A program made the translations under genes and the position numbers. The notes below the pieces were generated by a model, which was not told the DNA's origin, did not search any database, and saw only the letters and a list, made by a program, of their open reading frames with translations. A stretch of 58,517 nt of DNA, the filler included, from Sluysia triapertura (taxonomy: Eukaryota), in NCBI GenBank assembly GCA_046118255.1. It is 5 parts of 5 records of this genome, joined end to end, with 100 filler letters (N's around TTAATTAATTAA, not from the genome) between each part and the next. Parts side by side here need not be neighbours in the genome. Positions count along the whole stretch, not along the records: positions 11,298 to 22,757 come from JBJNIA010184513.1; 4 more parts are not named here. The stretch is one strand, 5' to 3'. Of this stretch, positions 20,921 to 22,757 are shown piece by piece. The number at the start of each line of letters is the position of its first letter. The first letter of the stretch is position 1.

Positions 20921-22757
20921 TTTTTTTGTTTATTTCTTCTACTGCTAATTCATCATCCTCTTGATACATAAATCCTGAAACTAAGTTAAATTTGATTTGT
21001 TTTAAAAATATTAGAGGGCATTGGGATTTTTCTAATTCATATATTAGTGTTGATTCGCCAATATCACAACTAGTTTGGTCACTTCTATAAAATGGTCGTG
21101 ACATCGTAGTTCCTTTTTCTAAATCAAAACTTTCATTAAAAGATCTTAAACTTACCACATACGTTTCTTGTGCTACTACATTTTTATAAATTTTCCCTTC
21201 ATATTCTATCGAACCCCTTTCGCAAGTGTCATCTAATAATACATTGCCTGCGGTTTTTACATTATAAATTATTTTTTCATTATTTTTAATTTTAAGTTTA
21301 TCTCCTTTATTTAAACTAATATACCCAGTTTCAAAAGAGTCTCGACATTTATATGGTACGATTTTAAATGGTTTTAACACATTAGAGATGTCAATAATTG
21401 ATGAGTGACTATGATGTCCACAATACCACATAACGACTGACATCATAACTGAACATTCTCGAACTAAAGTGGTAACCAAATTTAATATTTTCATATCTTT
21501 TATTTTAACTCTATTAGGTCTTGCTTCGGGACAATGTTCAGTATCCAGTAATGAAATTTTTCTTCCAATCTGAGGTTGACTACAATCAAAAGCTTTAATG
21601 GCATTTGTTTTATGAATTCCAAATAAAGCCAATAGAACAATAATAAAAAGCATGTTATTAATTGTCATTCCAAATTGTGGGTTGATTTCATTTGTATTAT
21701 TAGTTATTAATTTTGAAATTAAGTTAAGTGGTTCGTTGAGTTTATTTTTCTCTTCTTTTGTTTTTTCTTTAATAATATTTTTCCATCCACCTTGTTCTTT
21801 TATCCAAGAGCCAAGTTTCTTGTCCATAAAATTTATAACACTATCCACTTTTTCTTTATTTACCAATACAGCCTTAGTACATTGAAACATCACATAGGCT
21901 ATTATAATTTTAAATCTTTCTCGACTCATACCAGCATTAATTTGCTTATTAATAATAGTTTTGTACTGTCCGTTATCCAAATAATCACTTATATCTGTAT
22001 ATTTGTATTTTTCTTGCATAATATCAATTATCTTAAGTAATGCAGTTTTATATGTTTTAAATTCAGGTAATGAAATTTTATATTTATCAAGATTAGTAAA
22101 CTTATATGATAATAAAGTGTACATTACACTTTTTGTAGTAAGTGTTTCTTCACTATCATTTTTATAAGTAATTTTTGTTAAATCCACAGGTTTTCTTTGT
22201 ATTGGATTTGGGATTATTGGTTCATGAATATCTATGTTTTTTCTGGGTCTACCAGGTTTTCTTTTGAAGGTATTAGTTTCTTTGTTTTGTGTTTCAACAT
22301 GAGGGTTTTTATTTAAATCAATAATATAATCAGGTTTTACTTCATTAAAATCATTATTATTATCTTCAGTCATATCTATAGTTTCATTTTTATTAAGATG
22401 ATTTTTATCATTATCATTATCTTCGAGTAATTCTTTTAGTAATGATCCTGGGGAATTATCTAAATCAACATCGGATATTTTATCATAATGTGGACTGATC
22501 ATTGAGTTATTTTTAGCTAAATTATCAAAAAATTTATTACTAACTTTATTAGTTTCTTTAGACTTAGTGTAAGCCATAATTATTGAGGATGCTAATAATG
22601 TTTCCTCGTGGTTTCCTTTTATGGTTGGATAACCATAATCACCTATAAAATCAAAAGGACATAATTTTCTTTCATAGAAGTATAAATCAACATCAGTTAT
22701 TGTTACATCATTTGATTTAATTAGTTCAATAATATCTTTAGCTCTTGACGTGATTGG
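20901..22757 (-). CDS. Retroelement polyprotein: unknown domain + AT-hook + Bcl-2-like domain + internal signal peptide + N-terminal part of chuvirus-like glycoprotein (5'-partial)
   Basis: The frame is open 60 codons upstream of the annotated Met, up to the contig edge. Numbering from that Met: KRKPGRPRK (aa105-113), BH1-like GMSRERFKIIIAYVMFQC, BH2 LGSWIKEQGGWKNII, hydrophobic MLFIIVLLALFGIHKTNA (aa309-326), then AFDC, ISLLDTEHC and YCGHHSH. Confidence 0.85.
   Translation of the reverse strand, partial: PITSRAKDIIELIKSNDVTITDVDLYFYERKLCPFDFIGDYGYPTIKGNHEETLLASSIIMAYTKSKETNKVSNKFFDNLAKNNSMISPHYDKISDVDLDNSPGSLLKELLEDNDNDKNHLNKNETIDMTEDNNNDFNEVKPDYIIDLNKNPHVETQNKETNTFKRKPGRPRKNIDIHEPIIPNPIQRKPVDLTKITYKNDSEETLTTKSVMYTLLSYKFTNLDKYKISLPEFKTYKTALLKIIDIMQEKYKYTDISDYLDNGQYKTIINKQINAGMSRERFKIIIAYVMFQCTKAVLVNKEKVDSVINFMDKKLGSWIKEQGGWKNIIKEKTKEEKNKLNEPLNLISKLITNNTNEINPQFGMTINNMLFIIVLLALFGIHKTNAIKAFDCSQPQIGRKISLLDTEHCPEARPNRVKIKDMKILNLVTTLVRECSVMMSVVMWYCGHHSHSSIIDISNVLKPFKIVPYKCRDSFETGYISLNKGDKLKIKNNEKIIYNVKTAGNVLLDDTCERGSIEYEGKIYKNVVAQETYVVSLRSFNESFDLEKGTTMSRPFYRSDQTSCDIGESTLIYELEKSQCPLIFLKQIKFNLVSGFMYQEDDELAVEEINKKKFTKTI

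Follow-up and report, generated by a model that had tools for sequence, protein, structure and literature searches.

The window, the whole stretch of 58,517 nucleotides of Sluysia triapertura that was analysed, contains on its minus strand a fragment of a Burro-like gypsy polyprotein. The frame, read from 22757 to 20901, opens at an assembly gap and ends with a stop at 20901; its 5' end is lost because of the gap at 22758. In order, it encodes an AT-hook, a Bcl-2-like domain, a linker, a 13-residue hydrophobic run, the sequence TNA|IKAFDC and an Env of the chuviral/gB type. Residues are numbered from the start of the frame; an earlier note on this DNA numbered from M61, so that its M304, M309 and A326 are M364, M369 and A386 here. 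The features are as follows.

22758..22858, no strand: assembly gap, concealing the upstream part, where Gag lies in relatives
20901..22757, minus: open frame of 618 codons, part of a Burro-like gypsy polyprotein (tblastn comparison with relatives)
22239..22265, minus: AT-hook-like motif, aa 165-173 (sequence; a similar motif precedes the junction in seven relatives)
21765..22151, minus: divergent Bcl-2-like domain, about aa 203-331 (BH2 present, BH1 NWGR absent)
21783..21806, minus: BH2-like motif WIKEQGGW, aa 318-325 (Pfam and PDB sequence matches)
21669..21782, minus: polar linker, aa 326-363, without a hydrophobic segment (maximum Kyte-Doolittle value over 11 residues 0.58; pLDDT below 50)
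21615..21653, minus: h-region of the predicted internal Env signal peptide, MLFIIVLLALFGI, aa 369-381 (sequence; PF24664 match from aa 368)
21599..21614, minus: c-region, aa 382-386, and predicted signal-peptidase site at 21600/21599 (-3/-1 rule scan)
20919..21599, minus: Env ectodomain, first piece, chuviral/HSV gB-type, PF24664 (Pfam, relatives)
20617..20886, minus: Env, second piece, in another frame after a break near 20950-20886 (tblastn)
20396..20650, minus: Env, third piece, in another frame after a break near 20650-20617 (Pfam, tblastn)

The Env resembles the fusion proteins of mononegaviruses and the gB type. The Pfam family of Monjiviricetes fusion glycoproteins, PF24664, covers aa 368-551, with the match beginning at profile position 3 (E 4.3e-23), and is found again in a short frame at 20342-20650 (E 5e-17). 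Comparison with longer relatives by tblastn splits the Env of the window copy over the three frames listed, and homology stops near 20396, ahead of the Env membrane anchor. No pol was found after Env (18000-20396) and no Gag match beyond the gap (22860-36000); no long direct repeats flank the element among the 20 largest of 52 repeat families, and no tRNA genes were found. A short RNase H-like remnant at about 33943-34020 on the minus strand lies upstream of the gap, on the wrong side for pol in a Gag-Env-Pol order. Given an Env with two frame breaks that ends before its membrane anchor, and no pol, the window copy is a decayed relic without the capacity for a whole Env, and the function proposed below is therefore impossible for this copy itself. 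It was filed as a Burro-like fragment rather than as a member of Burro because it is truncated and lacks the downstream PR-RT-RH-IN.

The hydrophobic run lies 43 residues past the BH2 tryptophan, and the proposed cut, A386/I387, follows a c-region of five residues. With Kyte-Doolittle values of 3.43 over 11 residues and 2.11 over 19, the run exceeds every other segment of the protein in hydrophobicity, and it alone is above 2.0 in 15-residue windows. Among the 26 positions scanned (372-397), only 386 has small residues at both -3 and -1 by a crude rule-based scan. Both the helix, which the earlier note had placed about 40 residues past BH2, and the small residues that it had seen just before the glycoprotein start are thus borne out. 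Cleavable Sec signals processed by signal peptidase I combine a hydrophobic h-region, a short polar c-region and small residues at -3 and -1, and all three are present in the sequence. The helix region has a pLDDT below 50 in the alignment-based model, two in-frame Met codons (M364 and M369) stand at the start of the helix in the window copy, and, in the window frame, cysteines number two among the 369 residues before and eight among the 232 after. Because the PF24664 match begins at aa 368, the helix falls within the N-terminus of the fusion-glycoprotein family itself.

In tail-anchored proteins, the only membrane segment sits at the very C-terminal end of the primary product, and insertion is post-translational. 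Here, 232 residues follow the helix in frame, and more than 500 do so in longer relatives. The helix is therefore not a tail anchor in the primary product, and a tail-anchored topology could come about only after cleavage; the route of targeting would not be that of a tail anchor either.

The Bcl-2-like domain stands in frame directly before Env and has the Bcl-2 helical fold and a BH2 motif. The Pfam Bcl-2 match is sub-threshold (E 0.018, 16 bits against a curated cut-off of 31.4 bits), but all 43 matches of a PDB sequence search (E up to 10) belong to the Bcl-2 family by name, the best at E 0.068, and a profile built from eight junction sequences finds Bcl-xL in the PDB at E 1.3e-4. A single-sequence structure model was unusable (pLDDT 41), and an alignment-based model was used instead, with a pTM of 0.54 and an overall pLDDT of 57.9; in the core helices, blocks reach about 64-85. 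In a structure search with this model, the top 17 of the 50 listed matches are Bcl-2 proteins at Z 6.8-8.4 and rmsd 3.2-4.9, values of Z that are middling for helical models and alone may reflect a common helical arrangement. Every match listed by Foldseek is likewise of the Bcl-2 family, but at E 0.029 or worse (none at or below 0.001). Since sequence, motif and modelled fold agree, the Bcl-2 assignment is judged to be real but distant.

The BH1 NWGR motif is characteristic of the BH3-binding pro-survival members and is visible in the alignment with PDB Bcl-2 proteins. It occurs in none of the 13 Bcl-2-like domains compared (P0001-P0008, P0014, P0015, P0019, P0022 and L001), in which BH2 is mostly retained. 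A classical BH3-binding function is doubtful on this account, and the domain may act in some other way. No second hydrophobic segment that could serve as an anchor is present in the linker of any of the 13 Bcl-2-bearing junctions; therefore any anchoring of the Bcl-2-like domain, if it is anchored at all, would fall to the helix.

Relatives were gathered from several sources. A library HMMER search with aa 200-415 gave 12 matches, of which 11 are related and one, P0011, is a TPR protein matched by chance and was dropped. An alignment query added nine relatives, and a metagenome scan gave two loci, one of which (L002) is the same junction as P0019 and was dropped. Queried with the window protein, word-based searches for homologues gave no relatives among 2121 and 2695 candidates, 12 pattern matches in viral contigs included none, and the best score in an ESM Atlas search, 0.86, gave no lead. 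The resulting set comprises 22 junctions including that of the window, 13 with a Bcl-2-like domain and nine without. The best Bcl-2 profile score among the nine is -0.2 bits, compared with 26.9 bits for the window sequence when left out of the profile, and for two of them (P0009 and P0013), which may be incomplete, the sequence upstream is short.

The helix is present in all 22 junctions, including those of the nine relatives without a Bcl-2 domain. The conservation of the predicted cleavage site across copies, which the earlier note had named as a check, was found: a small residue occupies -1 in 21 of 22 junctions, -3 in 21 and both positions in 20, against 7.1% of all positions in these proteins, in a set whose rows are not fully independent (five pairs are at least 60% identical over the junction). 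The two failures count against a cleavable signal; P0007 has Met at -1, P0012, with Gly-Lys-Ala, passes, and rows such as P0006 vary. The median length of the h-region is 13 residues with the Bcl-2 domain and 13 without (p=0.20). Hydrophobicity over 19 residues is 1.73 with Bcl-2 and 2.02 without (p=0.045, uncorrected and one of three tests). Selection for a stable ER anchor would not be expected to give this result, though moderate hydrophobicity is common in mitochondrial tails. The distance from BH2 to the cut is 47-82 residues across junctions; in full-length Bax, the C-terminus lies 34 residues beyond BH2. From AT-hook to cut, the distance is 218-265 residues with Bcl-2 (four rows) and 115-188 without (four rows), as expected if Bcl-2 is an optional module. 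A usable start Met lies near the helix in eight of 22 junctions, more commonly with Bcl-2 (7/13) than without (1/9), which leaves room for separate Env initiation in the Bcl-2-bearing elements.

On an unrooted Env tree of 18 rows, from which P0002, P0004, P0006 and P0008 were left out for having less than 170 aa of Env, the presence of Bcl-2 requires five changes, at least three of them forced by well-supported branches; because the tree is unrooted, gain is indistinguishable from loss. Contigs from four public runs lie over the region, and one of 260 bases, in which the linker has gained 4 bases, connects the end of BH2 with Env. These contigs derive from related copies up to 20% divergent with families mixed; their depth differs between the Env and Bcl-2 regions, a difference set aside because depth is no measure for ranking parts. 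Of the differences in the related copies, 25 of 40 (the best-supported of 73) fall at third codon positions (p=1.5e-4), and the synonymous share among those listed is 8/9 in aa 364-386, 12/15 in Env, 7/13 in Bcl-2 and 0/3 in the linker. By these counts the signal is conserved at the protein level.

Several relatives retain more of the polyprotein. In 9 of 21, the same frame also encodes a CCHC Gag knuckle upstream; 12 of 21 have a protease motif downstream, and 4 of 21 have both CCHC and RT motifs. PR-RT-RH-IN follows Env in the same frame in P0012, P0015, P0019 and P0021. Some relatives also carry ubiquitin-like and ankyrin domains. Within a Gag-Env-Pol chain, Env would depend on an internal signal for entry into the lumen, and Pol on a membrane segment further down for its return to the cytosol; the long relatives have both a predicted internal signal and such a segment. 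None of the seven AG dinucleotides between BH2 and the helix is acceptor-like, that is, pyrimidine-rich upstream and preceded by Y.

The order of domains has a published precedent. Planarian Burro elements, described in PMC6431247 as giant gypsy-like LTR retrotransposons (Burro/GYPSM1) with reference to Jurka 2007 and Grohme 2018, encode one polyprotein from Gag to Pol in which a BCL2-like domain and, after it in the same frame, an Env similar to the fusion proteins of mononegaviruses stand between Gag and protease. The Burro section of that article makes no mention of a signal peptide, cleavage or a membrane anchor. Burro elements have LTRs and are about 30 kb long, whereas the window copy has a truncation and frame breaks, and neither pol nor an LTR was found for it. 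The domain architecture and the AT-richness of the sequence suggest a planarian host for the window copy. According to the available portion of PMC13465017, the anti-apoptotic role of Burro1 has been assigned to an IAP-like region. GAG-ENV-POL errantiviruses of Nematoda, Bryozoa and Platyhelminthes share the gene order and an HSV/gB-type Env with the ectodomain between a signal peptide and a transmembrane domain, but the available portion of their description does not treat polyprotein processing or a Bcl-2 domain (PMC13524379).

Parallels in topology come from RNA viruses. In the NSm-Gn-Gc precursor of Rift Valley fever virus (RVFV), as described in the available portions of PMC4217093 and PMC4926171, a cytosolic anti-apoptotic protein precedes the Gn signal, is cut by signalase and ends in a C-terminal mitochondrial anchor; this is an RNA virus in which the arrangement was shown experimentally, and NSm has no Bcl-2 fold by anything tested here. 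The anti-apoptotic rubella capsid retains the E2 signal as its C-terminus, which confers membrane association and mitochondrial targeting, but this signal has 23 residues, Bax is bound through an arginine motif and the signal is dispensable for blocking apoptosis, according to the sections seen of PMC3040668. Cellular and viral Bcl-2 proteins (Bcl-xL, Bax and BHRF1) share the helical fold and the BH2 motif with the domain described here, which differs from them in lacking BH1 NWGR in 13 of 13 cases, in having a glycoprotein rather than the C-terminus after the helix, and in its longer and variable linker. The in-frame BCL2-Env layout and the anchoring of an upstream anti-apoptotic protein by a glycoprotein signal are both already published. 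The literature searched contains no statement of a dual signal and anchor role for Burro, although one may already be in print.

Taken together, the sequence comparisons suggest that the helix probably is an internal cleavable signal peptide of a gB-type Env in a Burro-like Gag-Env-Pol polyprotein and would afterwards serve as a secondary anchor of the Bcl-2-like product. In an intact element, the ribosome would first make the cytosolic part from Gag to Bcl-2; the helix would then engage the ER translocon with its N-terminus cytosolic, and signal peptidase would cut after the residue corresponding to A386, releasing Env into the lumen. The Env membrane segment would bring the chain back to the cytosol for PR-RT-IN, and the cut helix would stay with the upstream Bcl-2-like product as its secondary membrane anchor. 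The Bcl-2-like domain itself is best described as an optional, BH1-degenerate module between the AT-hook and the signal, without an anchor of its own. Lasting retention of the cut signal on the upstream product is the less secure part, with a chance a little short of even. The earlier note had further expected 1:1 output and tethering of the capsid to the Env-bearing membrane; both would require that env has no RNA of its own and that Gag remains attached to the helix, and capsid tethering, if real, would hold equally for elements without Bcl-2.

What becomes of the helix after the cut separates this reading from its strongest competitor. Signal peptide peptidase or a viral protease can take off a signal peptide, as for the HCV core and the flavivirus capsid, and such removal would undo the anchoring. 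The helix may accordingly do no more than translocate Env before an intramembrane protease, or one of the element, removes it, leaving a soluble and possibly nuclear AT-hook-bearing Bcl-2-like protein; this is a sizeable possibility, if short of being the expected outcome. An h-region with a median of 13 residues is short for a stable span and is not longer in the Bcl-2-bearing elements than in the others, the distance from BH2 to the cut exceeds that to the C-terminus of Bax, the absence of BH1 NWGR makes a BH3-binding role at the membrane doubtful, and relatives carry one to four protease motifs. Set against this, no second cleavage site was identified, and retention is documented for the 23-residue E2 signal of the rubella capsid (PMC3040668) and the C-terminal mitochondrial anchor of RVFV NSm (PMC4217093), as far as the available text of these papers goes. 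If the site were instead left uncut, Env would stay joined to the Bcl-2-like domain and span the membrane at both ends. Available passages describe some gB-type ectodomains flanked by two transmembrane domains (PMC13524379) and an uncleaved NSm-Gn precursor in RVFV (PMC4217093), but the short h-region and the conserved small -3/-1 residues, which in 20 of 22 junctions immediately precede a conserved start like that of a mature protein, make this arrangement improbable.

The earlier note had cast the helix as both Bcl-2 tail anchor and Env signal. What survives of this is an internal signal with a signal-peptidase-type site, in frame with a Bcl-2-like domain that has no other anchor in any of 13 junctions; a Bcl-2 tail anchor by origin or design it does not appear to be, as it is present in all nine relatives without Bcl-2 at the same length and is not more hydrophobic where Bcl-2 is present. 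That the helix descends from the tail anchor of a captured Bcl-2 gene and was reused as the Env signal is thus very unlikely, even though the order of BH2, linker and hydrophobic helix is that of cellular Bcl-2 proteins and Bcl-2 could, on an unrooted tree, be ancestral and have been lost repeatedly with the helix left behind. PF24664, a model of the whole fusion-protein family and not specific to these elements, starts with the helix segment, and an N-terminal signal is the general rule for the gB-type Env of errantiviruses in the available account (PMC13524379). The equal presence of the helix in relatives without Bcl-2 shows, at the level of sequence, that it belongs to Env. It is also unlikely, though less so, that Env has a spliced or subgenomic RNA of its own that starts at M364 or M369, in which case the helix would be an ordinary N-terminal signal and the fusion to Bcl-2 relevant only to the full-length polyprotein. 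Those codons are in frame at the helix start, 7 of 13 Bcl-2-bearing junctions have such a Met, and in other gypsy elements env is expressed from an ORF of its own, according to the part of PMC6431247 available; but a usable Met is absent by the set criterion in 14 of 22 junctions, the 190 bases before the helix offer no acceptor-like AG, and Pol follows Env in the same frame in relatives, so that the full-length product passes through the helix anyway.

The preferred reading of a cleavable Env signal offers a concrete processing model for Gag-Env-Pol retroelement polyproteins, whose in-frame Env is described in the available publications with no account of its route into the secretory pathway. 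If the cut signal is retained, the layout would be convergent on those of rubella capsid and RVFV NSm, and the location of the Bcl-2-like protein would be predictable. The gain is modest, as the gene layout and the type of mechanism are both known and the copy is dead. A fuller scenario, speculative and on balance rather unlikely as a whole, is that Burro-like elements captured a Bcl-2 domain that lost its own tail and BH1. The cut Env signal would then carry this domain, perhaps still fused to Gag, to membranes of the ER or of mitochondria as Env is produced, and the polyprotein might pass through the membrane as many as four times; a host-derived Bcl-2 fold would thereby be anchored by the signal of a viral glycoprotein.

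The relatives show further features beyond the junction. Two to four aspartic-protease-like motifs follow Env in P0007, P0014, P0016-P0021 and L001. In P0012, P0015, P0016, P0017, P0019, P0021 and L001, a second signal-like helix lies near the C-terminus, after the integrase where Pfam annotates the row, and is followed by about 150-350 residues, a final transmembrane segment and a basic tail. These seven may have a second predicted lumenal domain, which has no Pfam family, and a chain that crosses the membrane four times. P0012 (HBK71150.1), a Gag-Env-Pol polyprotein, carries the source label of a Flavobacteriaceae MAG and is likely a eukaryotic contamination of that MAG.

Elsewhere in the window, a weak CCCH zinc-finger match lies at 47870-48232 on the minus strand (PF25427, E 1.5e-4, below the cut-off). 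A separate gypsy fragment occupies 55901-58359 on the plus strand, where 56210-56863 encodes a zinc knuckle of Gag and 58020-58359 holds pieces of RNase H, and an ORF with a C-type lectin domain at 41980-42564, also on the plus strand (PF00059, E 6.2e-8), is probably a host gene.
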